From Thermoanaerobaculia bacterium (GTDB lineage Bacteria; Acidobacteriota; Thermoanaerobaculia; UBA5066): a stretch of 64,000 nt of DNA. A program made the position numbers and the translations under genes. The notes under the pieces were generated by a model. The model was not told the origin of the DNA. It saw only the letters and a list, made by a program, of their open reading frames with translations, and made no database searches. Location of the stretch: positions 65,111 through 129,110 of the forward strand of contig CAVVDA010000006.1 in the NCBI GenBank assembly GCA_963746875.1, written 5' to 3'. Positions 23,547 to 43,347 of the stretch are shown piece by piece (within the stretch, counting starts at the first letter, position 1; each line of letters starts with the position of its first letter).

Positions 23547-24194
23547 TCAGTTCGTCAGCTTGCGATCGGCGGCCCAGCGGACCAGTTCGGCGCGGCTCGA
23601 AAGGCCGAGCTTCCCCAGGATGTTCGCGCGGTGGCTCTCGACGGTGCGGATCGAGAGGTCCAGCTCGTCGGCGATCTGGCGATTCGTGTAGCCGCGCGTG
23701 AGGAGCTTCAGGACGCCGGTCTCGCGCTGCGTGAGGGATTCGTCGTCGCCCTTGCGGGGCTTGGGCGGCGCGGAGCACCTGTTCGCTTCGAGAAGCGCCC
23801 GGGTCATGGAGGAGTGGACGTAGAGCTCGCCGCGGCTCGCGGCCTCGATGGCCGCGAGGAGGTCCGACTCCACCGCGCGCTTCACGACGTAGCCCACGGC
23901 GCCGGCCTTCATCGCCTCGCGGAGGAACGCGGCGTCCTCGTGGACGGTCAGGATGAGGACCTTGGTCGCGGGGAGGTCCGCGTGCAGCTTGCGGGTCACC
24001 TCGATGCCCCCGATGCCCGGCATGGAAAGATCCATGAGCACGATGTCGGGCTTCAGCGCGACCGCGGCGCGATACGCCTCGTCGCTGTCCGCGGCCTCGC
24101 CGACGACCTGATAGTTCGACTCGTCGTTCAGGAGCGCGCGGAGGCCGGCGCGCAGGACGCCGTGATCGTCGGCCACCAGAATTCTAAGCCCCAC
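23547..24194 (-). CDS. NarL/FixJ-family response regulator (REC + LuxR HTH)
   Basis: Intact 215-aa ORF with ILVADDH, DIVLMDLSMPGIGG, and the HTH LTQRETGVLKLLTRGYTNRQIADELDLSIRTVESHRANILGKLG. Confidence 0.9.
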   Translation of the reverse strand: MGLRILVADDHGVLRAGLRALLNDESNYQVVGEAADSDEAYRAAVALKPDIVLMDLSMPGIGGIEVTRKLHADLPATKVLILTVHEDAAFLREAMKAGAVGYVVKRAVESDLLAAIEAASRGELYVHSSMTRALLEANRCSAPPKPRKGDDESLTQRETGVLKLLTRGYTNRQIADELDLSIRTVESHRANILGKLGLSSRAELVRWAADRKLTN

Positions 24195-26107
24195 TGGGAA
24201 CCTCCACGACGAGCGTCGTCCCCGACCCGGGGCTGCTTTCCACGAGGAGGTGGCCGCCGAACATCTCGGCGCGCTCGCGAATCCCGAGGAGGCCGAGCCG
24301 CCCCGACCGGTTCGCGACCTCGACGTCGAAGCCGCGGCCGTCGTCCTCGACGACCAGGATGATCTGCCCGTTCCGCCTTTCCGCGACGAGGCTCACGTTC
24401 TTCGCGTCGGCGTGCCGGGTGGCGTTCGTCAGAGCCTCCTGGGCGATCCGGTAAAGGGCGGTCTCGAGGTCGAAGGACAGGCGCCTCCCTTCGAGACCGA
24501 GCGTCTCGAGCTGGACCGACGGTCCCCCGCTCACGGAGTGCTTCGAGGCGAGCTGGCCGAGAGCCGGGACGAGCCCGAGATGCTCGAGAGCGGCCGGCCG
24601 GAGGTCGGTGGCGAGGCGGTGCAGGCCCTCCTGCACCGCGTCCGCGAGGTGCTTCAGCTCCTTGATACGGAGGACGACGGCCTCGGGCCGTCCGGCCTCG
24701 TTTTCCAGCAGGCGCAGGCCGACCAGCAGGGACGTGAGGAGCTGCCCGGCCTCGTCGTGGAGCTCCAGCGCGACCCGCCGGCGTTCGCCCTCCTGCACGT
24801 CCACGAGCTGGCGCGAGAGAACCTGCAGCCGATGGCGACTGGCGCTCGCGTCCTCGAAGAGGCCCGCGTTCGCGATCGCCACCGAGGCGGGCGAGTAGAG
24901 CGCCTCGACGAGACTGACCTGCTCGGGCGTGTAGAAGTTCGGTTCCGCCTTGACGAGCGTGTACAGGCCGATCGCCTGGCCGCCGGCGAGAAGCGGAACG
25001 CCGACCCAGCTCCGCTCGAACTCGGGTCGAATCTGACCGCCCCACACGGGAAGCGCGTGTGTGTCGGCCACGCAGACGCTCCGCTTCGTGAGGAGCACCT
25101 CGTTCACGGCGCTGTTGGCCGCGGAATCGAAGGTGATGAAGGGCAGGTCGGCGAAGTCGACTCTTCCGGTCGGGCTGAAGACCGCCCGCACCTTCAGGCG
25201 CGACGGGCCCTCGAGGAGCATGATCTTGGCCCGGTCGTACGGCACGAGACGGCCGAGATGGTCGAGCATCGCCGCGAAGACGTCCTCGATGTCGAGCGAG
25301 CGGGTGATCGCGAGGCTCGCGGAGCGCAGGGTGTCGGCCGTCTGCCGGGCTCGCTGCTCGGCCTGGAAAAGGGAGGCGTTGTTCACGGCGATGCCCACCT
25401 GCCGGCCGATGGCGCGAAGCAGCGCGGCCGTGGATGCGTCGAGGGGCCGCGGGGTTCGCCAGACGACGTTCAGGATGGCCCCGGCTCGGTCGCCGATGGG
25501 AAGGAGGACGCTCAGGTGCTGCCGGAACCCCGCCTTCTGAAGGGCGTCGCCCGGCACGCTGAGGCACTCCGCGATCTCCGCACCCGCGGCGGACGGAGGC
25601 TTGGCGCACCAGCCGCGGCAGGTGCCGCAGGAGGGCCGGAGCGCCGGCTCTTCGGCATTCACGAGGGACTCCGGAACGCCGCGCGCGGCAATGAAGCGCG
25701 ACGGCCCCGCCGGTCCCCCTCCGAGCACCTGGACCCAGACGGCGTCGCCCTCGAAGACGGGGATGACGACGTCGATCACGTTGAGGAGAAGGCGATCCAC
25801 GTCCAGCTCGCTCGCGGCCGCCGCCGTGACCGCGTAAAGCGCCTCCAGCTCGCGCGTGCGCCGCGTCAGCGTCCGCTCGACCTGCTGGCGATCCGCGCAT
25901 GAGCCGCATCAGCGGGCGGACGATCAGCACCCAGAGAACGGGAGAGACGAGGGCCACCATCAGCGCGATGTCGAGGAGCGTGGCCGACCAGAAAGGGCGC
26001 GGCTTCAGGATCTCGAGGATCGCCATGACGATCAACTCGGCCACGACGATCACCGCGATGGTCACCAGCATCGTCCGGAGCCGCGTGGCCGGTTTCTCGC
26101 TCGCCAA
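24184..26107 (-). pseudogene. membrane GAF-GAF sensor histidine kinase (HisKA_3/NarX type); one +1 switch near 25883
   Basis: ORF 24184..25800 holds two GAF-like regions, the H-box ELHDEAGQLLTSL, and an HATPase domain (LVVEDDGRGF, GLLGIRERAEMFGG). The two-TM N-terminus (MASEKPATRLRTMLVTIAVIVVAELIV...) is in the adjacent frame from ATG 26107. There is an 11-nt overlap with the regulator. Confidence 0.85.
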
Positions 26108-26255: not shown

Positions 26256-28268
26256 TCACGGGGCGGCCCACACGAAAGCGCCGTCGCCGGTGCGCTGGCC
26301 GGGTGTGGCGCCGTCGTTCAGGACGCCGTAAACGAGGAACGGGCTCGTGCCCGAGGTCCTCACGACGTGCGCATAGCCCTCCGTCACGCCCGGCGCGCTC
26401 GTGGACAGGATGGCGTTGTACTGCGTCCATGCCCGGGCCCCGAGGGAAACTCCGGAGAGCCTCGCCGCGAGCGCACCCGTCGCGCCGTCGTACAGCTCGA
26501 TGTCGAACACGTCCGGCGGGTCACCCGGCTGGCCGAGGTTCGCGAGGGCGAGGTTCGTCCGGGTTTCGGCGTTCTGCTGGAGGCCGAAGAGCCAGAGAGC
26601 GCCGGCGGTCTGCCGCTCCACGACCTGCGCCGTGAAGAAGAGGCCGAACTTCCCGCCGCCTCCCGGAGTCGAGACGCGCGCCCCGAGGACGACGCCCCCG
26701 AGATCGCCGCCGGTCTCCCGGGCGAAGAGATTCCCGGCGAACGTCGGGCCGGCCGGGCCGATTCCCGGCGTTCCCTGCCGGCGCATCCGGTCGACGAAGC
26801 CGGGCAGGATCTGCTGCTCTCCCGGGCCCAGGACGAGCGTCGTGACGGCCGCATGGTCCGGCGTCCCGATCGCGTCCGCGACGTACGTGAGCTGCAGCGT
26901 CTTCGGGGAGGCCGACCAGTTCGTCGCCACGAGCTCGGTCGTGAACGCCGGGGTCTCGACGAGCGCGGGAAGGGCGAGGAGGAGCTGGGTGGCGCCCGTG
27001 CTCGAAGGGACCGCGGGAACGTAGGAGCCGTCGGAGTTCGCCTGGTCGTTGATCACGGCGTAGGCGGCGTAGGGCGCGCTGCCGCTCACCCTCTCGACCC
27101 GGACGTACCCGTTCGCGAGCGAGAGGCCGTTCGAGGCGAGGATGCCGTTGATCTGTGTCCAGCCGCCCGGCGAGAGCGTCACGTCGGGAAGGGTCGTGGC
27201 CGAGGGCGCCGCGGGGTCGCCCGAATAGACCGTGAGCCGGAGCGCCACGTCGCCCGCCGACGCGCTTCCCGCGTTCTGGAGCGCGACGTTCGAGCGGTCC
27301 TGCCCGTTCTGCCTCAGGCCGAAAAGGTACGACGTTCCGGTCAGAGTCGCCGCGGGTGGCAACCCGGAGTAGGCGAGCCCGGCCCGGCCGGTCGGCAGGG
27401 CCGTGGTCGTCCGCGCCGTGAGGCCGATCTCGTGGAGCGGCACGCCCGAGACGAGGACGCGCAGCGTGCCGCCGCGGTCCCCGGAGCTTGGAATCGGGAT
27501 TCCGAGGGAAATCAGGTAGGCGATGGCGTCCGGGACGACGCGCTGCCGCCCCGCGGGGACGAGGTCCGTTCCGACTCCGCCGCCGCCGCCGAAGGCCCCG
27601 GCGTACTCGAAGGTGAGCGTCGCGTCCGACGCCCCCCGGTTCGTCAGCGTCAGCTCCGTCGTGAAGAAAGAGCCGCTTGCTCCGGCGCTGGTCAGGACGA
27701 TCGGCACGAAGAGCGACTCCTCGAGAAGCGCGACGGTCAGGTTGTCGGCCATGAACAGCGCCGAGGATTCCTGGCAGCCCGGGGGGGTGTCGTAATGGAT
27801 CACGACGGAGTTGAAGCCCTGCGCCGCGCCGAGAGTCAGGAGTCCGGTCGGCCAGGTCCCGGGGACGGGAGCGGTCGCGGTGCTCGTCGCCACGAATGCG
27901 CCGTCCATGAACCCGGTGATCCGCATGGTCGCCGACCTGTTGCAGTCGACTTCATCGGGCGCATACATGATCGAGGCGGCCGACAGGGTCCGGGAGAAGC
28001 TGACCGAAAGGTCGGCCGGGGGGGCCCCCAGGTTCGGGTAGAGACACAGGCCGGAGAAGCCGACCGGCGTGAAGCCCAGCACGTCGGCGAGCTGGATCGA
28101 GTAGCTCTGTCCGGGGGCCGTGAACCGCGCCGTGACGCCGCCGGCCGTGAGATCGAGCGGGAGCTGAGCCCTGTACGGCGCGGTGTCGAAGTCGAAGGTC
28201 ACGCTCTGGGCGGACGCCGGACGCGCCATGAGGGTCAAGCCGACGAGGATCAGCAGAATTCGCTTCAT
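26256..28268 (-). CDS. secreted protein of unknown function with two homologous ~240-aa modules
   Basis: ATG 28268 follows AAGGAGG. Signal peptide MKRILLILVGLTLMARPASAQ. The ORF is intact. Internal duplication: FFTTELTLTN ... YLFGLRQNGQDRSNVALQNAG ... GYVRVERVSGSAPYAAYAVINDQANSDGSYV versus AFTTELVATN ... LWLFGLQQNAETRTNLALANLG ... GYAHVVRTSGTSPFLVYGVLNDGATP. Confidence 0.7.
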   Translation of the reverse strand: MKRILLILVGLTLMARPASAQSVTFDFDTAPYRAQLPLDLTAGGVTARFTAPGQSYSIQLADVLGFTPVGFSGLCLYPNLGAPPADLSVSFSRTLSAASIMYAPDEVDCNRSATMRITGFMDGAFVATSTATAPVPGTWPTGLLTLGAAQGFNSVVIHYDTPPGCQESSALFMADNLTVALLEESLFVPIVLTSAGASGSFFTTELTLTNRGASDATLTFEYAGAFGGGGGVGTDLVPAGRQRVVPDAIAYLISLGIPIPSSGDRGGTLRVLVSGVPLHEIGLTARTTTALPTGRAGLAYSGLPPAATLTGTSYLFGLRQNGQDRSNVALQNAGSASAGDVALRLTVYSGDPAAPSATTLPDVTLSPGGWTQINGILASNGLSLANGYVRVERVSGSAPYAAYAVINDQANSDGSYVPAVPSSTGATQLLLALPALVETPAFTTELVATNWSASPKTLQLTYVADAIGTPDHAAVTTLVLGPGEQQILPGFVDRMRRQGTPGIGPAGPTFAGNLFARETGGDLGGVVLGARVSTPGGGGKFGLFFTAQVVERQTAGALWLFGLQQNAETRTNLALANLGQPGDPPDVFDIELYDGATGALAARLSGVSLGARAWTQYNAILSTSAPGVTEGYAHVVRTSGTSPFLVYGVLNDGATPGQRTGDGAFVWAAP

Positions 28269-28340
28269 GAGCGGCCTCCTTGGTTTCTTCGTCCGGCGGC
28301 CTCGCGCCGGACCGGCCCTTAGAAGCACGATTGCTGCCCT

Positions 28341-28375
28341 GGATCGAGAGGAAAAGAAAGGGATCGAGAGGAAAA
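28341..28375. repeat. tandem direct repeat GGATCGAGAGGAAAA x2 (20-bp period) in the leader of the secreted-protein gene
   Basis: 28341..28355 and 28361..28375 are identical 15-mers. On the minus strand they read TTTTCCTCTCGATCC, about 75-105 nt upstream of ATG 28268. Confidence 0.8.
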
Positions 28376-28403
28376 AAAGGGGGGAGGGATTGCTCCCTCC
28401 CCC
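28372..28403 (-). terminator. rho-independent terminator downstream of the large multicopper oxidase
   Basis: Perfect 10-bp stem GGGGGAGGGA (28380..28389) / TCCCTCCCCC (28394..28403) with loop TTGC. On the minus strand it is followed by T7 (28372..28378) and lies 27 nt after the stop at 28430. Confidence 0.8.
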
Positions 28404-28429
28404 AGATCAATACATGTCGTGTCAGTGCC

Positions 28430-31400
28430 TTACGGTACCGTCACCGGGGTCGGAGCCCCGAAGTTGACGTACGCGGAGGGCCCTGCTGCGTTGAAGGACT
28501 GCACGCGGAAGTAGTACGGAACGCCGCGCAGCAGGCCGAGCGTGCCGCCGGGTGTCGTGAACACCGTCACGTTGGCGCCGACAGTGCCCGTGCCCACGCC
28601 GCTCGTGAATGCCGCGTTCCTGTGCCCACTGGACCCTGAATCCGGTCTCGCGTGGTGCTGTTGTCGGTCCACCTGACTGTGAAGATGGCTCTCGTCGCGG
28701 AGAGAACAGCGCCCGTCACGGTGACAGCGCTGGGCGCCGCGGGCACCACGTTGGTGTTGACCAGGGCGGTATTCGAGAATCCGGACGTGGTGGTCTTCGT
28801 GGGGAAGCCCGTAGAAGCCGGGTAGACCTGCGTGTCGCCGACCACGTTCGAGGCGAATACCCTGAAGTAGAACGACGCCGATCGTGTTGCCGATGATGTT
28901 GCTGTAAAGTCGTGACGTTCGGCAGCGACGGTGAAGGTCTGAAGGCCGGTCAGGAAGGCGGCGTCATTCGCCCTCTGGATGGTGAAGCCCGTCTCGTTCA
29001 GGGAGTTGTCCGTCCAGTTCAGGACGATTGCCCTGCCCGAGCCGCTTCCGGTCACGACCGCGCTGAGCCCGGTAGGAGCGTTCGGCGGCGATCGCGAACG
29101 CCGAGCGAGTGCATCATGTCCATCTCTTCGTGGGCGAGGATGTGGCAGTGCCACACGTACTCCCATCCGAAGTTGACGTCGTGGTTCAGGATCTGATTGA
29201 TCGCGATTCCCTGCGGGTCGAGCCAGCCGGCGGGCGGCGGCGGGATCAGCGGGGCGTTGAGAGGCAGCGTCGGGTCGATCAGGCGGACGCTGTTGGGCAC
29301 CTGCGAAGGGGAGCTGCGCCGGGGTGGGAATGATCGGTTTCATCGCGAGGAAAGTGATCTCGAGCGGGTTGATCCTGAACGTGTCCTTCCAGCCCAGCTC
29401 GTTGGCGTCCGGCGGCAGCATGATGCCGTCCTGGCCGACGCGGTTGAGGAGCTGAGCGTTGAACAGGTGGACGTGAATCGGGTGCGTGTCCACGCCGTTG
29501 TGGAAGATCCTCCAGATCTGGGTGCCGTCGCCGAGCGACCCGACGATGGATCCGGACACCGAGCCGGAGATGATGTCGGTGGGCGGGGCTGCATAGCCGT
29601 ACATGGTGAGCAAGCGCGGCTCCGGGCGTCGGGTTGGAGAGCCCGATCATGCCGCTCATGCGGCCGAACTGCGTGTCGTACACGCCGCCCATCTCGTCAT
29701 GGATGCCCTTCGTCTGGAGCGGGATGGTGACAGCAGGCTGCAGAACGCCGGCGCCGTTGATGGGCTGGAAGGTCTTCTGCGTGTCGGCGATCTGCACATA
29801 CTGGGTCGCCGGAGCCGTCGGGAAGATTGTTTCTGTACGCGGAGTTGTAGGCGGCCTGCGGAACGATGATCGGGTCCTGCGTGGCCTCGAAGACGCCGCG
29901 CTTGACGCCGGGGCCCTTGGCGAACACCGCGTTGAGGTTCGCGAGGGTGACGCCGGCAGTCAGCGGCGCCGACGCGGCGATCACCCTGATCTGCATGACC
30001 GTGCGGGTGTTGGGGCCGTAGCCGGGCAGCGTGTCGGGCGCGCCGCCGATGTCGATCTGGCTGCCGTCGCCCGTGTAGTAGTCGTAGACGCTGACGCCCG
30101 CCGGGAACGCCGCGGGAGCGTCGTTGTAGAGGATGAGCGTCTTGCCGGCGAAGGCCGGTGAAGTCGACGATCACGTCGGCCCGCTCGGCCGGTCCGAGGA
30201 GGAGCGAGTGCTGGTTGACGTTGCCGAAGTTGAAGGTCGTCGCGTTGAGGTTCCAGCCGATGGGCTGCTGGGGCACCACGACGGGGGCCGGCAGGAAGCC
30301 GCCCTCGGTGCCGATCTGGATCCAGGCCGGTCCGGCCTTCGCGGCATCGGGGATGCCGCTCGGCGTGAGGGCGTTCTGGTTCGCCGGGTTCACGGTGACC
30401 GGGACCATCGCGACTTCCGTGCAGTTGGCGACAGGTGCGGGTCGACGCAGGGAACGGCCGGCGAAGCCCGATGGGAGCGCCGTGACGCGGCCGTCGTCGG
30501 GGAAGTCTTGTCCGCGGCCACGTAGAGCTGCAGGTTCAAGAACCGGTCATTGGCCGCGTTCAGGACGCGGAACCGGTAGGCCTTGGGCTCGACTTCCATG
30601 TACGGGTAAGCCGTGCCGTTGACGATCGGCGTGTCCATGAAGGCCTCGCCCGGCATGGAGGGGTTCGGGGTGCCCGGCATGAGCGGCGGCTCCCAGGGGG
30701 CGGAGCAGGGGAAGTTGACCGGATCCGGGGGGAACACGTCGCAATTGGGTTCGTGGAAGGGGTTCGGGACCGGCCCGACGTCGATGCACCCCGCCGGGAG
30801 CCCGTTGACGCACGTCGGGGTCGGCGCCACGAACCACGGGCCGTAGTGCCAGCGGCCGAAGGCGTTCGCGCCGGCGAGATCCCACGGATTCTGGGCCGAC
30901 ATGTAGACGTGGGGGTACCAGAGGTCGCCCGCGACGGCGGCCGTCAGTTTTCCGGCGGCATCCCTTGGGCCCGTTCCCCAGTTCCACGTGGGGTCCTGGG
31001 CGAAGATCACGTTCGGGTCCACCCAGGTCTTGTCCTGGATGACGAGGGGAATCCCGATGCCGGGGAGGACCTGGAGCAGGCCGGGGTTCACGCCGGAGAC
31101 GTTCGTTCCGGCGATCATGTCCTGCTCGACCTGGTCGGTGATCACGTAGCCGGCGGCCTCGCCGGCGAAGACGTTGAGGCGCGTGATTCCCATCGCATGG
31201 TCGTGGTAGAACATCAGGCGGGCGCTCTGGGCGTTCGTGTAGTAGAACGTCGCGGCGCCGTCGGGCGGGATCCGGCATGTCGGGCACGTTCCGCGCGCTC
31301 ACGCCCTTCGGGTACGCATGGGCGGAAGCCGGCGCGGGGGTGATCCACTGGTGGGTCGTGCCGTCGCTGATCCACACGGTGTTGTTGCCGTGGAGGTGGA

Positions 31401-32556
31401 TGGTGGCGCGGTTCTGGCTGTACTTGCCGCCGTTGGGGACCCATCCCGGAGCCCATGACCGTCTCGTCCACCGGGAGGACGAGGTCTCCGCCCGACGCCG
31501 GGCGGAAGCAGGTTGTAGAACTTGATGCGGGCGGGCAGGTTGCTGCCGGCCACGATGACAGGCCCCAGGTAATGGGGGAAGTCGAAGGCCGTGACCTGGG
31601 TCGCGGTTCCGGGATAGAGGATCGGGGTGCCGTCGAGATACGTCAGCGGAACCGCGGTGCCGCGCCACGGGACGTTCGTCGGGGTCGTCAACTGCACGTA
31701 GCCCCGCATCCGGGTCGGCGGCAGGTCGGAGTGGAACTTCTCGTAGTACTCCACCAGGCCGATGACGTAAGAGTCGGAGAAGGGGAGGGCTGCCGTGGCG
31801 AAGTTCTCGGCCTTGGCAACCGGGATGTACTGGCCGCTGGTCGAGGCCGGGCCAGGGTCCGAGACGGTTAGGCGTGACGAGGGTGTTCGCGCCGGCTGCC
31901 GTCAGTCCCGGCAGCTTGTCGACGAACTTGCGGATGCCGCCGGTGACGGTCGCGGGATCGAGCGACGCCGTGGCGGCGGCGCCCGTGCCGCAGGCCGGCT
32001 GCGACGGGACACCTGTAACGGATCGATTCGCACCGCAGAGGGTGGGATCGTCCTCGATGAACACGAAGGGAGCCATGTAGCCGGTGCCGCCCAGGCCGCC
32101 GGCGATGGCGGTGATGACACCGGCAGATCAACGGTGAAGCGGAACGAGCCGGCGCCTGATGCCCGCGCCGTAGGCGTCGAGGACGACGCCAAGGGGAGTC
32201 GACGTATCCGCTGCCTCCGGCGTCGAGCGTGACGGCGGCGACGGGTCCCGCGGGGAGCGGGCTGTTGGCCCAGTTAGCGTAGGGACCGAAATAGTGCGGG
32301 GTCCCGCCGGGACCGTCGATGCCCGGGAGGGGCGGGATGGCTGCGCCGGGGGCCCGATGGATGGCCTTGCCCGCGACGCCCGGCTTCAGGCCGAGGGCGC
32401 GCGCGCGCTTCGCCGCTGCCTTCTTCTCCGCGTTCGTGACTTTTCCCTTGAGCACGCCGCCGGCGGCGGGTCTTTGGTCCCCTGCGCGCCTGCCTGACCA
32501 AAGGTCAGGGCGAGCAGTGCCGACAGCACTAGAACCGGGAGCTTCCTACGAATCAT
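28430..32556 (-). pseudogene. large secreted multicopper oxidase with N-terminal extension and two C-terminal FN3 domains; at least 10 frame switches
   Basis: Signal peptide MIRRKLPVLVLSALLALTFGQAGAQG (ATG 32556, preceded by GGAGGAGG). Copper motifs: TIHLHGNNTVWISDG, MFYHDHAMGITRLN, HPIHVHLFNAQLLNR, WHCHILAHEEMDMMH. FN3-like repeats: NWTDNSLNETGFTIQRA ... YFRVFASN, and WTDNST ... YYFRVQSFNAAGPS. Ends TPVTVP, with the stop at 28430. Confidence 0.8.
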
Positions 32557-32782: not shown

Positions 32783-35109
32783 TCAGAAGCGCCATCCGAC
32801 GTTCGCGAAGAACATCCGTCCGGGCTCGGGGACACGGACCCCGGACCGGTACGGGTCGCGCTGGTAGGAGAGAGCTTCGTAGTAGAAGCGGTCGAAGAGG
32901 TTCGCGACCCCGCCCGTCAGGACGAACCCGCCGACGTTCGCTCCCAGCCTGAGGTTGGCGATGCCCCACCCCGCCGTCGGGGTCTCCTCGAGGTCGGTGT
33001 CCACCCGCGTCTGGGCCGCGGTGAAAACTCCCTCGGCTTCCGCCCAGAGGCGGCCCGTGTCGTACCGGAGTCCGAGGCGCCCGCGCAGCGGGGGCATCTC
33101 GGCGAGGTTCGTCGAGTAGATCCCGAGCGCCGGCTGCGCGTCCTGGCTCCCACGCACGTAGGAAAGATCGCCCGAGAGAAAGATCCGGTCCGTCAGGGTC
33201 GCCACCGCGTTCATCTCGCCGCCGAGCAGCGTCGCGTCCACGTTCGCGTACGAGCGGGCGGACGTGTTCATGACGCCGGGTGCGATGTTGACGCGCGTCT
33301 GGTCGTGAAGCGCGACGAAGTCGGTCACCCGGTTCGCGAAGAGGTTCGACGCCCGCGTAGATGCCGGAGCGGCGGATCGAGAGCGCGACGTCGAGCCCCG
33401 TGTTGCGGCTCGGCGAGAGCGCCGGATTCCCGACCCAGTCGTTCCCGGTGCGCTTCACGGCGTAGTAGAGCTCGCTCGGCTCCGCGACGCGCACCTTGGT
33501 TCCGACCCCGCCCGAGATCTCGGTCCCTTCGGAGGGCTGGAACACGAGCCGGACGGAGCCCGACGGGAAGGACGTCCGCGTACGACGTCGAGCGCGTGTC
33601 GTTGTAGGCGTAGTAGAGATTCGTGTTGGCCTTCGCGGGATCGGCTCCGCCGGACGCCCAGTCGACCCGGGCTCCCGCGACGAAGCTCAGCCTGGCCGGA
33701 GAGCGGGTGCTTCCAGTCCGCGTAGAGGCCGGCGATGTCGGCGGTGGCTCCGGGGAGGCCGTACGAGGACATGTACGACCCCATCATGCTCATCTGGCCG
33801 ATCGTCTCCCAGAAGCGGTGGAACGCCTCGACACCGGCCGTGACCTCGGAGAAGAGGGTCGCCTGCAGCTTTCCGCCGAGGGTCCTGGAATTCGCGAGCG
33901 TCCCCATGCTGTAGCCGAGCGGGGCCGTTCCCGCGGACGTCCGGAACTGGTCGGTCATGAAGTGATCCACCTGCGTGTAGTACCCGAGGAGCTTCACGGC
34001 CGAGACGGCGCTTCCACCGCCCGCGATGTCGTAGGCGAGGCTGAGGCGGTCGGAGCGGTCCCACGGGCTGTCCATCTTCAGGTAGGGATAGAAGACCTGG
34101 TTCGCCTCCTGATGCGTCCACGCGACTTCCGCCGCGTGGCCCGCGAGCGGAGCGACGCGCAGCTTTCCCCACGCCGTTCCGACCTTGAAGGCGGCCGAGT
34201 CCACCTCCGACGGCTTGTAGTTCGTGAGCTCGGTGAAGCGCTTCCCCGAGCCGTCCACGTACGCGTCCGAGGAGCGCCACGAGAACCCCGCGAGCGCCGA
34301 GACCGTCTCGCCGCCGAACGAGACCGACGCCGCCGGGTTGAGGTAGCCCGCGGAGCCCGCCGCGAGGTTCGCCGTGGCATGCCAGCCCGCGTCGGGCTGC
34401 CGCGTCACGATGTTCACGGTTCCGCCGAGGCCGCCCTCGTTCTTCACGTCGAAGGGGCCCTTCCCGACCTCGATCCGGTCGACCTCGGCGAAGTCGAGCG
34501 TGGAACGAGGGCGGGTCCATGTGGCTCGGGCAGGCGCCGTAGATTCGCTGGCCGTCGATCAGGACGTTCAGGTTGTCCGACTGGAAGCCGCGCACGACGA
34601 CCTCGTTCGCGATGCCTCCCTTCCGGAGCTTCCAGACGCCGGGCGTTCCGGCGAGCGCTTCGCCGACGTCGCGCGCGGGGCTCTCGCGGATCTCCGCCGC
34701 CTCCACGCTGTCGCGGGGCGAGTCGCCGACGACCGTGACGGACTCACGGACGGTCGAGACGGCGAGCGCGAGGGTGACTTCCTTCGACTCGCCGGCCGCG
34801 AGGCGGAAGGGGGGAAGCGCCGTCGGCGAAAAGCCGGTCGCCTCCGCGACCAGGACGTACGTGCCGGGCGCGAGGCCTCGCGCGCGAAAGACTCCGCGCT
34901 CGCCGGCGGCCACGCGCAGGGCGCGGGCTCCGTCGGACGGAGTCACGGTGACGACGGATCCGGGCAGGCCGGTGCCGTCCACGGAGACGACCGCTCCGGT
35001 GATGGACGCGGTCGAGGTCTGGGCGAGCGCCGGGAGCGCACACGATGAGAAGAGGAAGAAGGACGAGCGCCGCGACGAGGCCGGGCGCCGAGTTCATTCG
35101 GAATCGCAT
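32783..35109 (-). pseudogene. TonB-dependent outer-membrane receptor, OprC/NosA-like copper type, with CarboxypepD_reg-like N-domain; at least 5 frame switches
   Basis: Signal peptide MRFRMNSAPGLVAALVLLPLLI, then a CarboxypepD_reg-like domain (GSVVTVTPSDG ... GTYVLVAEATGF). Plug domain: GIANEVVVRGFQSDNLNVLIDGQRIYGACPSHMDPP. Barrel fragments in ORFs 33455..34447 and 32783..33328, ending FANVGWRF. CPSHM is at 34518..34532 and HFM at 33956..33964. Confidence 0.8.
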
Positions 35110-35584: not shown

Positions 35585-35801
35585 GGCTCTCGGAGAAATA
35601 TCGGGCCGTCCAGTGCTCAAGAAAAGCGTGGAAAATACGGGCTGTCTCCGCGCTTTACACGGACCCGGAAACTGTTCAGAGACCGTATGTTCTGCGGTTG
35701 ATTATCCCCTCTTCGACAATCCAAATTGACCCCTTAAGAGAGTTGCCACGTGTTGGCGAATTACTGGGGCGGTGAATTCACCTGCCCGGAGGAGGCTTGA
35801 A

Positions 35802-38103
35802 ATGCTGAATCGACGTGACCTGATCAAGACCGGCCTTGGAGCAGGCGCTGGCCTTGCCCTCGGGAGGTGGGGCAAGTGGGGAAGCGCTAACGCCGCGTTC
35901 TTCAACCAGAGCCCCAACATTCCGCTCTTCAAGACCGCGCTCCGCGGCGTGGGCCCGGGGGGAATTCCGGTGGCGGTCCCGGGCTTCCTCGGGGGCTTCA
36001 CGAAGGCGCCCGTGACCGGCGTGTCGCATTACGAGATCGGCATCATCCAGTTCCAGGATCAGATCTGCCCTCCCGAAAGCGGTCTCGGCCCGACGAAGCT
36101 CTGGGGCTACGCCCCGGCAAAAGGGCTGGGCGGGTACATCAAGCCGACGCACCTGAGCGGCCTGATCGTCGGGAAGGGTCGCTCGCCTGGCGTCCCAGGA
36201 CAGCGGCGCAGCCGATCCAGATCAGCTTCCAGAACCTGCTCTTCGTCAACAAGCACATCCTGCCCGTCGACACGGACCATCCCGGGCGCGGAGCAGGCGA
36301 TCAACCGGACGGCCGTCCACCTGCACGGCGGCCTCGTCCCCTGGATCAGCGACGGCGGCCCCTTCGACTGGTTCGACCCGTACGGGCGTCACGGCGCGAG
36401 CTTCCTGAACAACAAGGTCCTGAATCCGCTCGCCCTTCCCGGCTCCGCCGAGTACTACTACCCGCTGAACCAGAGCGCCCGGTTCATGTGGTACCACGAC
36501 CACGCCGTCGGCATCACGCGGCTGAACGCCTATGCCGGAATCGCCTCCGGCATGCTGATCCGGGACACCTTCGAGGCGGGCCTGATCAACAAGGGCCTGC
36601 CCAACTACGTCGAGGCCGGCGGCAACGAGATCCCGCTCGTCATTCAGGACAAGATCTTCGTCGGCACGAGCCACATTCACAACTCCGACCCGACCTGGCC
36701 GGGCCCGACGGCGCCCGGCAGCCTCTGGTACGCGCACGTCTACGATCCGGACGCGGTGGGAGCTGTCGCCCGGAGGCCTGACGCCTTCCGGATCCGTCCT
36801 GCATCCCCGAGTTCTTCGGCGACACGATGCTGGTCAACGGCACCGTCTTCCCGCAGGCCACCGTCCAGGCGCGCCGCTACCGCCTGCGGCTTCCTCAACG
36901 CCTGCAACGCCCGGTTCCTGAACCTGCAGCTCTACGTGGCCGACGGCAGCCCGAACGGGATCACGCTGGATCCCCACACGGCAATCCGACGAACGACGCC
37001 TTTCGTCAACGCCGCCACGGGCGACTCGTCCTTCCTCCAGATCGGCACCGAGGGGGGCTTCCTCGCGCACCCGGTGAAGGTCCCGTGCAACCAGCCGCTG
37101 ATCGTGCCTCTCGACAGCCCGATCGGAATCCGGTCAGCCGACCCGTCGAAGGTCAGCAAGTCGCTCCTCGTGGCGCCGGCGGAGCGGCCCGACGTCATCG
37201 TCGACTTCAGCACGTTATGCCGGGCAGAGCATCATCCTCTACAACGACGCGCCCGCCCCGTTCCCGGGTGGAGACGACCGGTGACGACTACTTCCCGGGC
37301 CTTGCGAACGACGGCGGCAACCCGGTCAACGGCTCACGACGCGGACGGCTTCGGCCCCAACACCCGGGTCCTCATGCGGTTCAACGTGGTCGCGGCGTCA
37401 GGCGCCGCCGACTGACCTGCGCATCGACACCGCCCGACGGACCTGTCAAGCCGGCATCGATCCGTTCCTGGTCCCCTGGGGCATGACGACGCAGCTGCCT
37501 CACTCCGGGGTCACCGCGCGCTTCCTGAGCCTGAACGAGTACTTCGACGAGTACGGACGGCTCATCCAGATCCTCGGCAATGCCGCAGCGCCGTTCGGCT
37601 CGCCCTATGAAGGAACGCGCCACGTACCTCGGCTATCCGCCGTACGGCAACCCGACGTGGGGGCTACCGAGGAGTCGGTCCACTACGGCGACACGGAAGT
37701 GTGGGAGATCTACAACACCACCGGCGACGTCCACCCGATGCACTTCCACCTCGTGAACGTCCAGGTCATCAACCGGCAGTTGTTCGACGTGACGGCGCAT
37801 TCTCCGACTTCGCTTCACGCGGACCCGTCATCCCGCCCGAGCCGAACGAGCTGGGGTGGAAGGAGACGGTGCCGATGTATCCGGGCACGGTCACCCGGGT
37901 CATCATGAAGTTCGACCTGCCGCTCGATCGTCGACAGCAAGGGGAAGACCGTCAACACGAAGGAGATCCGCGGCTTCCAGCTGCCCATCACGAACGGGCA
38001 GCCGCCCGTCAGCCCGCGGACCGGCGGCGACGAGTACGTCTGGCACTGCCACATCCTGGAGCACGAAGAGCACGACATGATGCACGCGCTCGTCGTCAAA
38101 TAA
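35802..38103 (+). pseudogene. Tat-exported three-domain multicopper oxidase (CotA/bilirubin-oxidase-like); at least 6 frame switches
   Basis: GGAGGAGG precedes ATG 35802. Twin-arginine signal MLNRRDLIKTGLGAGAGLALG. Copper motifs: TAVHLHGGLVPWISDG, FMWYHDHAVGITRLN, HPMHFHLVNVQVINR, YVWHCHILEHEEHDMMHALVVK, then the stop at 38101..38103. Confidence 0.85.
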
Positions 38104-38247
38104 CGGAATCCGGAATCAAGAGATCCGGTGAGACTCCGATTGGCCCCGGCGCTTCGGCGCCGGGGCCATTCTTCTTCTCGGTGCCTGAGCAGCCTGCTTC
38201 ATGGCGTTCGAGCAGCGGTTTTCCGGCATAAGGTGAGGAGGCGGAAT

Positions 38248-39690
38248 ATGAAGCGGCCTGTCGTCATCACTGCCGTCCTCGCGAGCGCCCTCTTTCTCTT
38301 CCTCGCGGGAGTCTGGGCCGGCCACCGCTCGCCGGGCGGGGCCGCCGCAGCCGCGAGCGGGAAGAAAGTCCTCTACTGGGTGGACCCGATGCACCCGGCG
38401 TACAAGGCCGACAAGCCCGGCATCGCCCCCGACTGCGGCATGCAGCTCGAGCCCGTCTACGCGGACGGGAGCACGGGGGACGGCAAGGCCCTTCCGGCCG
38501 GCGCCGCGAAGGTGACGTCCGAGCGCCGGCAGATGATCGGGGTGAAGGTCGGGACGGCCGTCGAGGCCGGCGGGACGCAGAGCATCCGGACGCTCGGGCG
38601 CGTGGCCGCGGACGAGACGCGGGTCTACCGCGTGACCGCGGCGGGCGACGGCTGGATCCGCGAGGTCCTGCCCGTGACGGCCGGCAGCCTCGTGAAGAAG
38701 GACCAGATCCTGGCGTCCTTCTACGCCCGCGAGTTCCTCGCGGCCCAGCAGAGCTACCTCTACGCGCTGCGCGCGCTCAACCGCTTCGAGGCCGACAAGA
38801 CGGAGACGCCCGACCAGATCAGGCAGACGAACGCCAACATCCAGTCGGCGAAGGAGAGCCTCGAGAACCTCGGCATGAGCGAGCGGCAGGTCGAGGAGAT
38901 CGCGAAGAGCCGCGAGCTGGCCAAGAAGATCTACATCGTCGCCCCGGCCGACGGGTTCGTTCTGGCGCGAAACATCAACATCGGGCAGCGGTTCGAGAAG
39001 GGGTTCGAGCTCTACCGCCTCGCCGACCTGTCGCGCGTCTGGATCCTCGCCGACCTCTTCGAGCGGGAAGGGCAGGACATCAGGCCCGGACAGGTCGCGA
39101 AGGTGACGCTTCCCTACCAGGGGAAGACCTTCGCCGCGAAGGTCAGCGACATCCCTCCGCAGTTCGACCCGGCCACGCGGACGCTGAAGGTGCGCCTCGA
39201 GACGGACAACCCGGGTTTCGCCCTGCGCCCCGAGATGTTCGTCGACGTGGAGTTCGCCGTCGCTTATCCGCCCACGCTGACCGTTCCGATGGATGCCGTC
39301 CTCGACTCGGGGCTTCGGCAGACCGTCTACGTCGAGACGGAGGCGGGCGTCTTCGAGCCGCGGAGGGTCGAGACCGGCCGGAGCTTCGGCGACAACGTGG
39401 AGATCGTGAAGGGGCTCATGCCGGGGGAGAAGATCGTCCTCTCCGGCAACTTCCTCATCGACTCCGAGAGCCGGATGAAGGCGGCCGTGGCGGGCGTGCG
39501 CGGCGACTCGTCGAAGGACCCGGTCTGCGGAATGGACGTGGACGAGACGAAGGCCCGCGCCGCGGGAAAGACGAGCCAGCACGGCGGCGTCTCGTACTTC
39601 TTCTGCTCGGAGGCGTGCAAGAAGGAGTTCGACGCGAATCCCGCGAAGCACGCGGGCGCCCTGAAGGACGGCGGACCGGGACATGGTTGA
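38248..39690 (+). CDS. cusB: RND efflux periplasmic adaptor, CusB-like, with C-terminal YHS-type metal-binding domain
   Basis: GGAGG precedes ATG 38248; TM anchor present. N-terminal metal-binding motif [28 protein letters not shown], HlyD-type body, and C-terminal [45 protein letters not shown]. The ORF is intact. Confidence 0.85.
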
Positions 39691-42600
39691 GAAGGTCATC
39701 GACTTCTCGGTCAAGAACAAGCTCGTCGTCTTCATCCTCGTCGCCGCCGCGTCGATCTGGGGTGCCTGGTCGCTGAAGCAGGTGCCGCTCGACGCGATTC
39801 CCGACCTCTCCGACACGCAGGTCATCATCTACTCGAAGTGGGACCGGAGCCCGGACCTCGTCGAGGACCAGGTCACGTACCCCATCGTGACGGCGCTGCT
39901 CGGCGCGCCGAAGGTGAAGACGGTGCGGGGCTTCTCGGATTTCGGCTACTCGTACGTCTACGTCATCTTCGAGGACGGGACCGACATCTACTGGGCCCGG
40001 TCGCGGACGCTGGAGTATCTCTCCGGCGTCCTGCCGGGGCTCCCCGCCGGAGTGAAGACCGAGCTCGGTCCCGACGCCACCGGCCTCGGCTGGATCTTCC
40101 AGTACGTGCTCGTCGACACCTCGGGAAAGCACAGCCTCGCGGATCTGCGCTCCTACCAGGACTGGACTCTGCGCTACCACCTCCGGTCGGTGCCCGGGCG
40201 TGGCCGAGGTGGCGCCCATCGGCGGCTTCGGCCTGCAGTACCAGGTGAACGTCGACCCGAACCGGCTGCAGGCCTACGGCATCCCGATCGGCCGCGTCGT
40301 GGAGGCGGTGCGCGGCGGCAACTCGGAGACGGGAGGCCGCCTCATCGAGTTCGGCGGCACCGAGTACATGGTGCGCGGGCGCGGGCTACGCGAAGTCGCT
40401 CCAGGACTTCGAGAACATCGTCCTCTCCGCGTCGGAGACGGGGACGCCCATCCGGATCCGGGACGTCGGGCAGGTCACGATCGGGCCGGACCTTCGGCGG
40501 GGGGTCACGGATCTCGACGGCGAGGGCGAGGCCGTCTCCGGCATCGTCGTCATGCGGCAAGGGCAGAACGCCCTCGAGGTGATCGACCGCGTGAAGGCGA
40601 AGATCAAGGAGATCGAGCCGGGGCTTCCCGAGGGGACCAGGATCGTCCCGATCTACGACCGCTCGGAGCTGATCCACCGGTCGATCGACAACCTCCGGAC
40701 GACGCTGATCGAGGTGATCGTCACCGTCGTGCTCGTGATCCTCCTCTTCCTCTGGCACATCCCGAGCGCCCTCATTCCCGTGATCACCATTCCCGTCGCG
40801 GTCCTCATCTCGTTCATCCCCTTCCGCGCGATGGGGCTCACGGCGAACATCATGTCCCTCGGCGGCATCGCCATCGCGATCGGCGCCCTGGTGGACGCCG
40901 CGATCGTCGTGGTCGAGCAGACGCACAAGAAGCTGGAGGAGTGGGAGAAGAACGGCCGCCCCGGCAGCTATCAGGACGTCGTCGTGTCGGCGGTGAAGCA
41001 GGTCGCCGGCCCGAGCTTCTTCGCGCTTCTCGTCATCGCGGTCTCGTTCCTGCCGGTGCTGACGCTCGAGGCGCAGGAGGGGCGCCTCTTCAAGCCGCTC
41101 GCCTACACGAAGAACCTCTCGATGATCGTGGCGGCGGTCCTCGCCATCACCCTCGACCCGGCCCTCCGCCTCCTCCTGACGCACGTGAGAACCTTCGGCT
41201 TCCGCCCCGTGTGGCTCTGCAGGCTGGCGAACGCCGCGCTGGTGGGCAAGATCCACTCCGAGGAGAAACACCCGGTCAGCCGGTTCCTCATCCGGCTCTA
41301 CGAGCCCGTCGTGAAATGGTCGCTCCGGTGGAAGTGGGCGGTCATCGGCGGCGCGGTCTTTCTCCTCGTCGCCACGGTGCCGGTCTTCCGGCGGCTCGGC
41401 TCGGAGTTCATGCCGCCGCTCGACGAGGGGACGCTGTTCTACATGCCCTCGACGATGCCGGGCATCTCGATCACCGAAGCGCAGAAGCTGCTGCAGGTCA
41501 CCGACCGCGTCATCAAGCAGTTCCCCGAGGTGGACCGCGTCCTCGGGAAGGCGGGCCGCGCGGAGACCTCGACCGACCCGGCTCCGCTCTCGATGCTCGA
41601 GACGGTCATCACCCTGAAGCCCGCGTCGGAGTGGCGAACGGTGCCGACGTGGTACTCCGGATGGGCGCCGGAGTGGCTGAAGGGAATCCTGCGGCGCGCC
41701 TGGCCGGACCGGATCTCCAAGGAAGAGCTCGTCGACCAGCTCAACGAGGCGCTCAAGATCCCCGGCGTTTCGAACGCCTGGACGATGCCGATCCGGGCCC
41801 GGATCGACATGCTGACCACCGGGATCAGGACGCCGGTGGGGCTGAAGATCTCCGGGGCCGACCTGAAGGTGATCGAGGAGATCGGCGCCCAGGTCGAGGC
41901 GATCCTTCCCTCCGTGCCGGGGACGCGCAGCGTCTTCGCGGAACGGACGGGAGGCGGCTTCTTCCTCGATTTCGAGTGGAATCGCGACGAGCTGGCGCGC
42001 TACGGGCTGAGCGTCGAGGAGGCGCAGCAGCTCGTCCAGAACGCCATCGGGGGCGAGAACGTCACGACGACCATCGAGGGGCGGGCGCGGTACCCGGTCA
42101 ACGTGCGCTACATGCGCGATTTCCGGGCCGACCGGAACGCCCTCGAGCGCGTGCTGGTGCCGGTCGCGGGCGGGCAGAAGCACATTCCGCTCGGGCAGCT
42201 CGCGACCATGCGCGCGGCGAGCGGCCCCTCGATGATCCGGAACGAGAACGGGCTCCTGACCGGCTACGTCTACGTCGACCTTTCCGGGCGCGATCCCGCC
42301 GGCTACGTGGACGAGGCGGCGCAGCTTCTCCGCGAGAAGGTGAAGCTGCCGGCCGGCTACGCCCTCTCCTGGAGCGGCCAGTGGGAGGCCATGCAGCGCG
42401 TGCGCGAGCGGCTGGCGGTCCTCGTCCCCGTGACGCTCTTCCTCGTCTTTCTCCTCCTCTACATGAACACCCGCTCCGTCGTGAAGACGGGCATCGTCCT
42501 CCTCGCGGTTCCCTTCTCGGCGATCGGCGCCGTCTGGTTCCTCTGGCTGCTCGGCTACAACATGAGCGTCGGCGTCTGGGTCGGGCTCATCGCGCTGCTC

Positions 42601-42975
42601 GGGGTCGACGCGGAGACCGGCGTCTTCATGCTCCTCTACCTCGACCTCTCCTACGAGCAGGCGCGGAAGGAAGGGCGGCTGACCTCGCTCGCGGACCTGC
42701 GCGCCGCCATCGTCCAGGGCGCGGCGAAGCGGATCCGGCCGAAGTTCATGACGGTGGCGACGACCTTCCTCGGGCTCGTCCCGATCATGTGGGCCACGGG
42801 CACCGGATCCGACGTCATGAAGCGGATCGCGGCCCCGATGATCGGCGGCATCTTCACGTCGTTCCTCCTCGAGCTCGTCGTCTACCCGGCCATCTACGAG
42901 ATCTGGCGGTGGAACTTCGAGCTGAAGCGGAAGGTGGAACCCGTCGCGGACGCGCTCGCGACAGCGCCCGCCTGA
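39683..42975 (+). pseudogene. cusA: heavy-metal RND efflux pump, CusA type; two +1 frame switches (about 40198 and 40386)
   Basis: 8-nt overlap with cusB. N-terminus [22 protein letters not shown]. The TM4 signature GGIAIAIGALVDAAIVVVEQ is CusA-like rather than CzcA-like. The long intact part is ORF 40552..42975. Both switches are G-run expansions (cccgGGcgtg, cgcgGGctac). Confidence 0.9.
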
Positions 42976-42990
42976 AGAGGGAAGCCGCTC

Positions 42991-43347
42991 TCAGCGCGGC
43001 CGGCCGGCCCGGGACGACTCTTTCCGCTGCGCTCCGCGAAGCTGGGATTGCAGCGCGCGCAGGCGGCAGCCGCCGGGCGTCGCCAGGATCTGGGAGACGC
43101 ACGCCTGGTCGCAGCCCGCCTTGCCGGGCCAGCGCGAGCAGTACTTCAGGCGCACTTCGTTGCGGCCCGTGACGCGGCTGGCGATCGCCTGCGCGACGGC
43201 AATCCTGACGAGGGCCGCGTCCTTGGTCTCGGGACAGACGATCTCGCGATCGCCGCTGAGCGCACGATAAGCGCGGACGCCGGCGACGGCCGCCGGAACC
43301 GAGGCCAGAACCGTCGTGGCCGTGACGACCGTCGAAGTGGCGTCCAT
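42991..43347 (-). CDS. small membrane-anchored Cys-containing protein of unknown function
   Basis: Intact 118-aa ORF with an N-terminal hydrophobic helix (VVTATTVLASVPAAVAGV). Five Cys residues in IVCPETKD, LKYCSRWPGKAGCDQACVSQI and PGGC. Convergent with cusA. Confidence 0.5.
   Translation of the reverse strand: MDATSTVVTATTVLASVPAAVAGVRAYRALSGDREIVCPETKDAALVRIAVAQAIASRVTGRNEVRLKYCSRWPGKAGCDQACVSQILATPGGCRLRALQSQLRGAQRKESSRAGRPR

Follow-up and report, generated by a model that had tools for sequence, protein, structure and literature searches.

The window analysed here, a stretch of 64,000 nucleotides from a Thermoanaerobaculia bacterium (GTDB lineage Bacteria; Acidobacteriota; Thermoanaerobaculia; UBA5066; NCBI GenBank assembly GCA_963746875.1, contig CAVVDA010000006.1, positions 65,111 to 129,110 of the forward strand), carries a giant multicopper oxidase gene on its minus strand at positions 28430-32556. 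We found that this locus is a single gene, almost certainly intact in vivo, and that its product falls in a clade to which linkage with the copper exporter genes CusB(YHS)-CusA is specific. The observations as a whole are best explained by one intact gene for a Sec-exported giant oxidase, which would serve as an extracytoplasmic metallo-oxidase in copper handling, and we consider this explanation modestly favoured. A sequence-only reading of the same stretch, which had described an unusually large multicopper oxidase with an N-terminal repeat extension and two C-terminal fibronectin type III (FN3) domains, is partly supported in its interpretation. Beyond that reading, the frame breaks that interrupt the gene are most likely assembly errors, and the clade-specific CusBA linkage together with a neighbouring receptor gene is the best functional clue.

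No long open reading frame (ORF) is present between 28430 and 32556 on either strand, and the longest open stretch, of 526 codons, lies in a non-coding frame. The copper-ligand, extension and tail motifs of the oxidase all lie on the minus strand and are spread over three frames. The following features were located.

28430..32556, minus: whole giant multicopper oxidase gene, about 1375 amino acids after frame correction, stop codon 28430-28432 included
32479..32556, minus: signal peptide MIRRKLPVLVLSALLALTFGQAGAQG, Sec-type as read from the sequence
32047..32434, minus: N-terminal extension of about 200 amino acids, with a Lys/Ala-rich helix (NAEKKAAAKRARALGL), a PHYFGPYANWA motif and two tandem GGxGY repeats
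32204-32242, minus: extension segment LDAGGSGY, a GGxGY segment
32047-32124, minus: extension segment GGLGGTGYMAPF, a GGxGY segment
29103..31941, minus: CotA-like three-cupredoxin core, residues ~208-1160, holding all four copper motifs and insertions of about 450 amino acids
31381-31407, minus: copper motif ATIHLHGNN
31170-31214, minus: copper motif MFYHDHAM
29458-29487, minus: copper motif THPIHVHLF
29103-29153, minus: copper motif WHCHILAHEEMDMM, with Met at the axial position
28744..29088, minus: FN3 module 1, assigned on fold evidence and kept in nearly all family members
28969-29022, minus: tail segment NWTDNSLNETGFTIQRA, an FN3-like signature of module 1
28834-28872, minus: tail segment YFRVFASN, an FN3-like signature of module 1
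28433..28743, minus: FN3 module 2, C-terminal, containing 2-3 frame breaks
28654-28677, minus: tail segment WTDNST, an FN3-like signature of module 2
28433-28516, minus: tail segment YYFRVQSFNAAGPS, an FN3-like signature of module 2
28380..28403, minus: intrinsic-terminator-like hairpin, with a 10-bp stem of which 8 pairs are GC, followed by a T run, 27 nt past the stop codon

A frameshift-allowing protein-to-DNA alignment of the locus was performed with three intact orthologues (L001, L004 and L006) as references. Between 15 and 17 frame changes were needed, nearly all of them one extra base in the window. The corrected translation, which runs from the start ATG at 32556 to the stop at 28430-28432, is one collinear protein of about 1375 amino acids (1391 letters with X placeholders) without any in-frame stop, and it is 65-68% identical to the three orthologues over ~1240-1340 aligned residues. 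When five intact homologues were compared with the window by tblastn, a single collinear match hopping among the three minus-strand frames was obtained. Since the locus is collinear with intact orthologues, contains no in-frame stop after correction and is followed by a terminator past its stop codon, it is one gene and not several, as the sequence-only reading had supposed. The breaks lie at the following positions.

28559..32461, minus: about 17 frame breaks, mostly one extra base, from the frameshift-aware alignment
5' part of the gene, minus, approximate positions: 32453-61, 32203, 32160, 32128-36, 31860-84, 31496, 31426-38, 31260-72
3' part of the gene, minus, approximate positions: 30442-60, 30156, 29825, 29605-17, 29304, 29102, 29089, 28650, and 1-2 more within 28559-28625

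The same sites were then compared with short-read contigs, 93-99% identical to the locus, that come from seven public metagenomes and metatranscriptomes of soil and sediment. These contigs omit exactly one base at 31495, 31435, 31267/9, 29828, 29611/15, 29303, 29101, 29088 and 28650, and carry one added base at 32461. A frame-restoring indel was thus seen in DNA or RNA contigs at 10 of the ~17 predicted sites, and every predicted site that was covered was corrected. Two contigs, matching 31189-31388 and 28623-28762, are 98-99% identical to the window and lack the extra base at 31267 and 28650. Neighbouring genes are affected as well: cusA has two single-base insertions (40193 and 40383) and a short paralogue of the oxidase has about 8-12 frame breaks, while cusB has none. 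Among homologous loci, the oxidase gene is fragmented in 8 of the 20 copies from metagenome-assembled genomes (MAGs) of the 'MFD..bin' series (L007, L012, L020, L030, L041, L057, L060 and L065, split into several ORFs each), compared with 2 of the 39 copies in other assemblies, which suggests that assemblies of that series are systematically prone to indels in this GC-rich gene. Because the contigs of near-identical relatives restore the frame, neighbouring genes are also broken and split copies are enriched in one MAG series, we are highly confident that the frame breaks are consensus errors of the assembly and do not reflect decay.

The opposite explanation, that the gene is a genuine, recently decayed pseudogene and the ~17 indels are real mutations in the source strain, would fit the uneven break density, which is about 4 per kb in the oxidase gene, about 1 per kb in cusA and zero in cusB. 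In addition, the short-read contigs stem from different samples or strains and show near-identical relatives to be intact, not formally the source strain, and a search for the source sample's reads found none (the best run matched only 23% of the sampled words), so that the assembly-error origin is one that we infer. A decayed gene of ~1375 codons would nevertheless have to be free of in-frame stops and to retain a normal orthologue identity of 65-68%. Also against it are the breaks in the conserved neighbours cusA and the short paralogue, the absence of the extra base at 31267 and 28650 from the nearly identical contigs, and the enrichment of insertion-type breaks in one MAG assembly class, and we regard a true pseudogene as highly improbable. 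Programmed frameshifting was ruled out, as the ~17 sites share no common motif and other genes are hit too. An error model restricted to homopolymers was not supported, the break sites being mostly outside long homopolymers, and a GC3 frame plot over the whole window was too noisy for mapping the breaks. As a practical warning, about 17 single-base assembly errors suffice to give a healthy 4.1-kb gene the look of a pseudogene.

In the catalytic core, the HLHG, YHDH, HPIHVH and HCHILAHEEMDMM motifs were all located, so that the four-motif multicopper oxidase set, with Met at the axial position as the sequence-only reading had noticed, is complete. The corrected protein matches Pfam Cu-oxidase_2 with 29.2 bits against a cut-off of 20.4, while Cu-oxidase_3 stays below its threshold (17.7 versus 21, a fragment only). 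The closest solved structures by sequence are CotA of Bacillus subtilis (E=1e-30), bilirubin oxidase and phenoxazinone synthase. The NCBIfam equivalog cut-offs all lie far above the scores of the oxidase, which reach 83-122 bits for PhsA against 950; the match to the CueO model is likewise weak (21-32 bits against 525). The core fold was modelled with AlphaFold2 on the intact orthologue L026, which is 66% identical to the window protein (pTM 0.87, mean pLDDT 78). When this model was superposed on CotA, a target TM-score of ~0.8 and E=1e-30 were obtained, with about 950 alignment columns for the 500-residue target. Since the model spans CotA once across these columns, the protein has a single core of three cupredoxin domains into which about 450 residues are inserted. 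A six-domain architecture of the MnxG or ceruloplasmin kind is ruled out by the single motif set and the single CotA-like core. The modelled fold identifies the oxidase as a three-domain multicopper oxidase of the CotA/bilirubin-oxidase type, and reduction of O2 to water is predicted for it. It shares with CotA the HCHILxHE..DMM type-1 motif with its axial Met, but is about 2.7 times longer, adding the insertions (~450 amino acids), the repeat extension, two FN3 domains and a signal peptide.

The axial residue of the type-1 site is Met in 79 of the 84 family members sampled and Phe in the other 5, which are those of Geothrix rubra, one Geobacteraceae MAG and three CusBA-linked Acidobacteriota copies (L010, L029 and L053). 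Between the second and third cupredoxin domains there is also a loop, IHDEMGGVYDTQFGRMSGM (29648-29704, minus strand, residues 958-976), that is conserved across the family and contains many His, Asp, Glu and Met residues; it could serve as a loop for metal binding or for the substrate. In orthologues this region has as many as 6 Met per 25 residues, and residues ~890-940 of the orthologue model, near the loop, are of low confidence.

Outside the core, the signal peptide has a short basic n-region, a 14-residue hydrophobic core and an AGA-Q cleavage region, from which Sec export of the oxidase would follow; its RR pair is not conserved among orthologue N-termini, and no C-terminal sorting signal was seen in the oxidase. 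The GGxGY-repeat extension described by the sequence-only reading is present, with two tandem repeats of about 38 amino acids of the form I..IT...GGxGY..P.V.I.D..GTG..A.A, and is conserved in the family consensus including the PHYFGPYxNWA motif. It is beta-rich in the orthologue model (pLDDT 76-88), is absent from the 1130-amino-acid Bacillota forms and has no Pfam match even at E<=10.

The two FN3 modules proposed by that reading are both retained, each on a different kind of evidence. Module 2 passes the Pfam fn3 model narrowly, scoring 25.0-25.3 bits where 25 are required. For module 1 Pfam gives no match, and this module is recognized by its fold: an AlphaFold2 model of the window's own 145-amino-acid in-frame piece (28654-29088) has a pLDDT of 92, and among the 50 Foldseek matches listed nearly all are FN3 domains (neogenin FN5-6, titin Fn3, monobodies). 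A weak PDB sequence match to an FN3 domain of MyBP-C (E=0.006) was also found. Module 1 is 34-53% identical to 39 orthologues irrespective of their distal tails, and these tails vary within the family (FN3, DUF11, Ig plus CBM_4_9, FG-GAP, CarboxypepD_reg, SLH). The GGxGY module, the insertions of ~450 amino acids and the two FN3 domains are non-catalytic and would most likely serve as cell-surface spacers or attachment modules.

We then examined the family to which the oxidase belongs. A genome scan with the largest in-frame piece gave 80 loci in bacteria and archaea, where intact homologues range from 1130 to 2400 amino acids and most have 1450-1520. At E<=1e-10, a protein search gave over 5000 proteins, of which the best 120 are 54-65% identical to the window protein, 1229-1758 amino acids long and named only 'FtsP/CotA-like multicopper oxidase' or 'hypothetical'. 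Since these 120 relatives span that length range, the oxidase is normal-sized for its family, and the description 'unusually large' had to be given up: both size and architecture are the norm in a family with >5000 members 1300-1750 amino acids long. The carriers include Acidobacteriota, Myxococcota, Thermodesulfobacteriota, Nitrospirota, Chloroflexota, Bacillota, Methanothrix, Methanoperedens, Bathyarchaeota and others. Pelotalea, Geomonas and Citrifermentans are among the cultured Geobacteraceae that carry a copy, and the Geobacteraceae and Geothrix copies are collinear with, and 39-48% identical to, residues ~210-1170 of the window protein.

OmpB (GSU1394) and OmpC (GSU2657) of Geobacter sulfurreducens and MofA of Leptothrix discophora are secreted multicopper oxidases of very large size that have a single copper-motif set together with a fibronectin type III domain, and the two Geobacter proteins are surface multicopper proteins, of which OmpB has an FN3 domain (PMC5566968, PMC3495685). 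The window protein (~1375 amino acids) shares with this type a length of more than 1100 amino acids, a single core and accessory domains including FN3. Four genome scans returned neither G. sulfurreducens PCA nor Leptothrix, and GSU1394, GSU2657 and MofA were compared by description only; through the Geobacteraceae and Geothrix homologues, membership in the OmpB/OmpC/MofA family is likely. The oxidase is therefore a further copy in a known, very large and widespread family, and its architecture is not new. Soil, sediment and methanogenic communities abound in giant OmpB/MofA-like oxidases, and to our knowledge no substrate has been established for any of them.

Of the phylogeny that the sequence-only reading had suggested, the part covering Bacillus CotA-like proteins and the Geobacteraceae copies was carried out with FastTree on 89 trimmed cores, rooted on the former, with SH-like support values only. 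The window protein falls in a clade with 21-24 members and 98-100% support. This clade holds all the CusBA-linked rows of the tree except the window's own short paralogue. The Geobacteraceae copies lie outside this clade, as does the short paralogue, which branches at the base of the whole giant family. The window protein is thus placed in a different, well-supported clade from the Geobacteraceae copies.

The oxidase gene closes a minus-strand unit in which a TonB-dependent receptor precedes it, and lies opposite a divergent unit that consists of the short paralogue, CusB with HMBD and YHS domains, and CusA.

32783..35109, minus: TonB-dependent receptor, directly upstream of the oxidase, with Pfam CarboxypepD_reg and Plug
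35772..38103, plus: short paralogue of about 770 amino acids with the Tat motif MLNRRDLIK, no extension and no tail, frame-broken, directly upstream of cusB
38239..43172, plus: CusB (HMBD and C-terminal YHS by Pfam; cusB at 38239-39678) and CusA

Two further Acidobacteriota loci, L028 and L041, have the same receptor (78-85% identity) upstream of the oxidase and on its strand. Neither cusC nor cusF was seen beside cusBA. The slot directly upstream of cusB is occupied by the short paralogue in the window and by the giant oxidase in at least 15 related loci. The sequence-only reading was right that the short paralogue has a Tat signal and no tail; it also has no extension and ends directly after HCHILEHEEHDMMHALVVK. 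Of the further idea that the two enzymes work in different compartments or on different substrates, the part that holds is that different export routes are plausible, given the Tat motif of one and the Sec-type signal of the other.

When neighbouring ORFs were clustered across the 80 loci, many bacterial loci were seen to have CusB(YHS)-CusA immediately downstream of the giant oxidase, and two-component or sigma-54 regulators were found upstream of it. To count this linkage, 201 giant-oxidase loci were fetched, and those with at least 4 kb of flank were scored for CusA/B within flanks of about 5 kb.

At least 55% identity to the window protein: 43 loci, 21 with CusA/B
48-55% identity to the window protein: 47 loci, 2 with CusA/B
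Below 48% identity to the window protein: 93 loci, 4 with CusA/B

CusA/B therefore accompanies 21 of the 43 closest loci and 6 of the remaining 140 (Fisher's exact p=7e-11), which is strong evidence that CusB(YHS)-CusA linkage is specific to the window's clade. A literature search found no described giant multicopper oxidase linked to CusBA, and the linkage gives a testable copper-handling hypothesis for part of the family.

We favour a copper-handling role because the clade travels with CusB(YHS)-CusA and because here the receptor and the Tat-exported short paralogue also lie alongside. In E. coli, the periplasmic cuprous oxidases CueO and PcoA work alongside CusCFBA, and the genetic association of a multicopper oxidase with a Cus-type resistance-nodulation-division (RND) copper exporter is what the window shares with that system. 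CueO has a Tat signal, like the short paralogue, whereas the giant oxidase has a Sec-type signal and an FN3 tail. The giant oxidase would be exported by Sec, loaded with four coppers outside the cytoplasm and placed either at the outer membrane or beyond it, where the FN3 modules would form a stalk or anchor. The type-1 copper with its axial Met would take single electrons from the substrate, and the trinuclear cluster would reduce O2 to water. Since the CusBA linkage is clade-specific, we tentatively favour Cu(I), and possibly also Fe(II), as the donor oxidised outside the cytoplasm, in a surface counterpart of the CueO-plus-Cus arrangement, and we hold this assignment to be possible at somewhat less than an even chance. 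That the CusBA-linked clade is a dedicated cell-surface cuprous oxidase, acting on Cu(I) expelled by CusB(YHS)-CusA without adjoining cusC or cusF, is a bolder proposal that we consider rather doubtful. If it were true, an OmpB/MofA-like branch would for the first time have a concrete substrate and a physiological role, and copper, not iron or manganese, would be suggested as the ancestral business of the giant oxidases.

Several points count against this picture. Sec export and surface location are predictions from the sequence, and Cu(I) and Fe(II) are putative substrates. The Met-rich Cu(I)-binding segment of the CueO/PcoA kind is absent from the giant oxidase, whose core contains 2.3% Met and at most 3 Met in any 25 amino acids. 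The importer-type receptor in the unit of the oxidase fits copper supply as well as detoxification. The last two points fit equally well with another explanation, in which the copper genes only supply and balance the cofactor and the enzyme acts on Fe(II) or Mn(II) or in a reaction at a mineral surface, along the lines proposed for OmpB/OmpC and MofA. The presence of Geobacteraceae and Geothrix copies in the family agrees with such a role, and Geobacter OmpB and OmpC are reportedly needed for Fe(III)-oxide reduction. This explanation is, however, harder to reconcile with a CusBA exporter linkage that is specific to the window's clade and with the separation of that clade from those of the Geobacteraceae. 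The genes expected next to an oxidase of the OmpB/MofA type are also not beside the oxidase in the window: no mofB-like peptidyl-prolyl isomerase (PPIase) adjoins it, unlike in a Geobacter locus, and no mofC-like or other cytochrome and no SCO1 partner was seen there, the neighbours being instead the TonB-dependent receptor, a protein of about 670 amino acids, the short Tat paralogue and CusB(YHS)-CusA. We therefore consider cofactor supply unlikely, while giving it more weight than the explanations that follow.

The explanation that the enzyme is a laccase-like oxidase of phenolic or humic polymers, held on its substrate by the FN3 tail in keeping with the polymer attachment suggested by the sequence-only reading, draws on CotA laccase and bilirubin oxidase as the closest solved structures, on the soil and sediment habitat of the carriers and on the carbohydrate-binding modules among the tails of relatives (CBM_4_9 in a Methanoperedens copy). 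It seems improbable to us, as the conserved neighbours are metal-handling and regulatory genes and not genes of aromatic or polymer catabolism, the family is abundant in strict anaerobes and methanogens, and FN3 is a generic spacer domain. That same frequency in anaerobes and methanogens would suit an extracellular shield that consumes O2 to protect oxygen-sensitive cells and has no specific substrate, but nothing in the window points to oxygen defence, an electron donor would still be required, and the clade-specific CusBA linkage would be left unexplained, so that we give this idea very little credence. A polymer-bound laccase, an O2 shield and a true pseudogene are all less likely than Cu(I) oxidation or cofactor supply.

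Some further observations concern the surroundings of the giant oxidase genes. Just past the oxidase terminator, at 26256-28328 on the minus strand, lies a gene for a predicted secreted protein of 670-690 amino acids with no Pfam match, and the first ~200 residues of this protein are matched, at 55% identity, by a counterpart in the Acidobacteriota locus L028 (10598-11188) that lies about 1.4 kb downstream of the oxidase there. In 8-11 loci, among them L001, L023, L028, L032, L037, L041, L053 and L057, a PAS/GAF-HisKA_3 kinase and a NarL/LuxR-type response regulator adjoin the giant oxidase gene, and a similar pair is present in the window at 23556-26107; L025, L027, L046 and L084 have a sigma-54 activator instead of this pair. 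In Geobacter sp. H2geo (L148, 2-7999), genes for a giant-type and a divergent multicopper oxidase flank two FKBP-type PPIase genes, an arrangement that resembles mofA-mofB. Finally, the plus-strand GC skew is +0.12 to +0.15 across the oxidase gene (28001-32000), compared with ~0 to 0.06 elsewhere, and because it is markedly positive over the gene, the coding strand of the oxidase is unusually C-rich.

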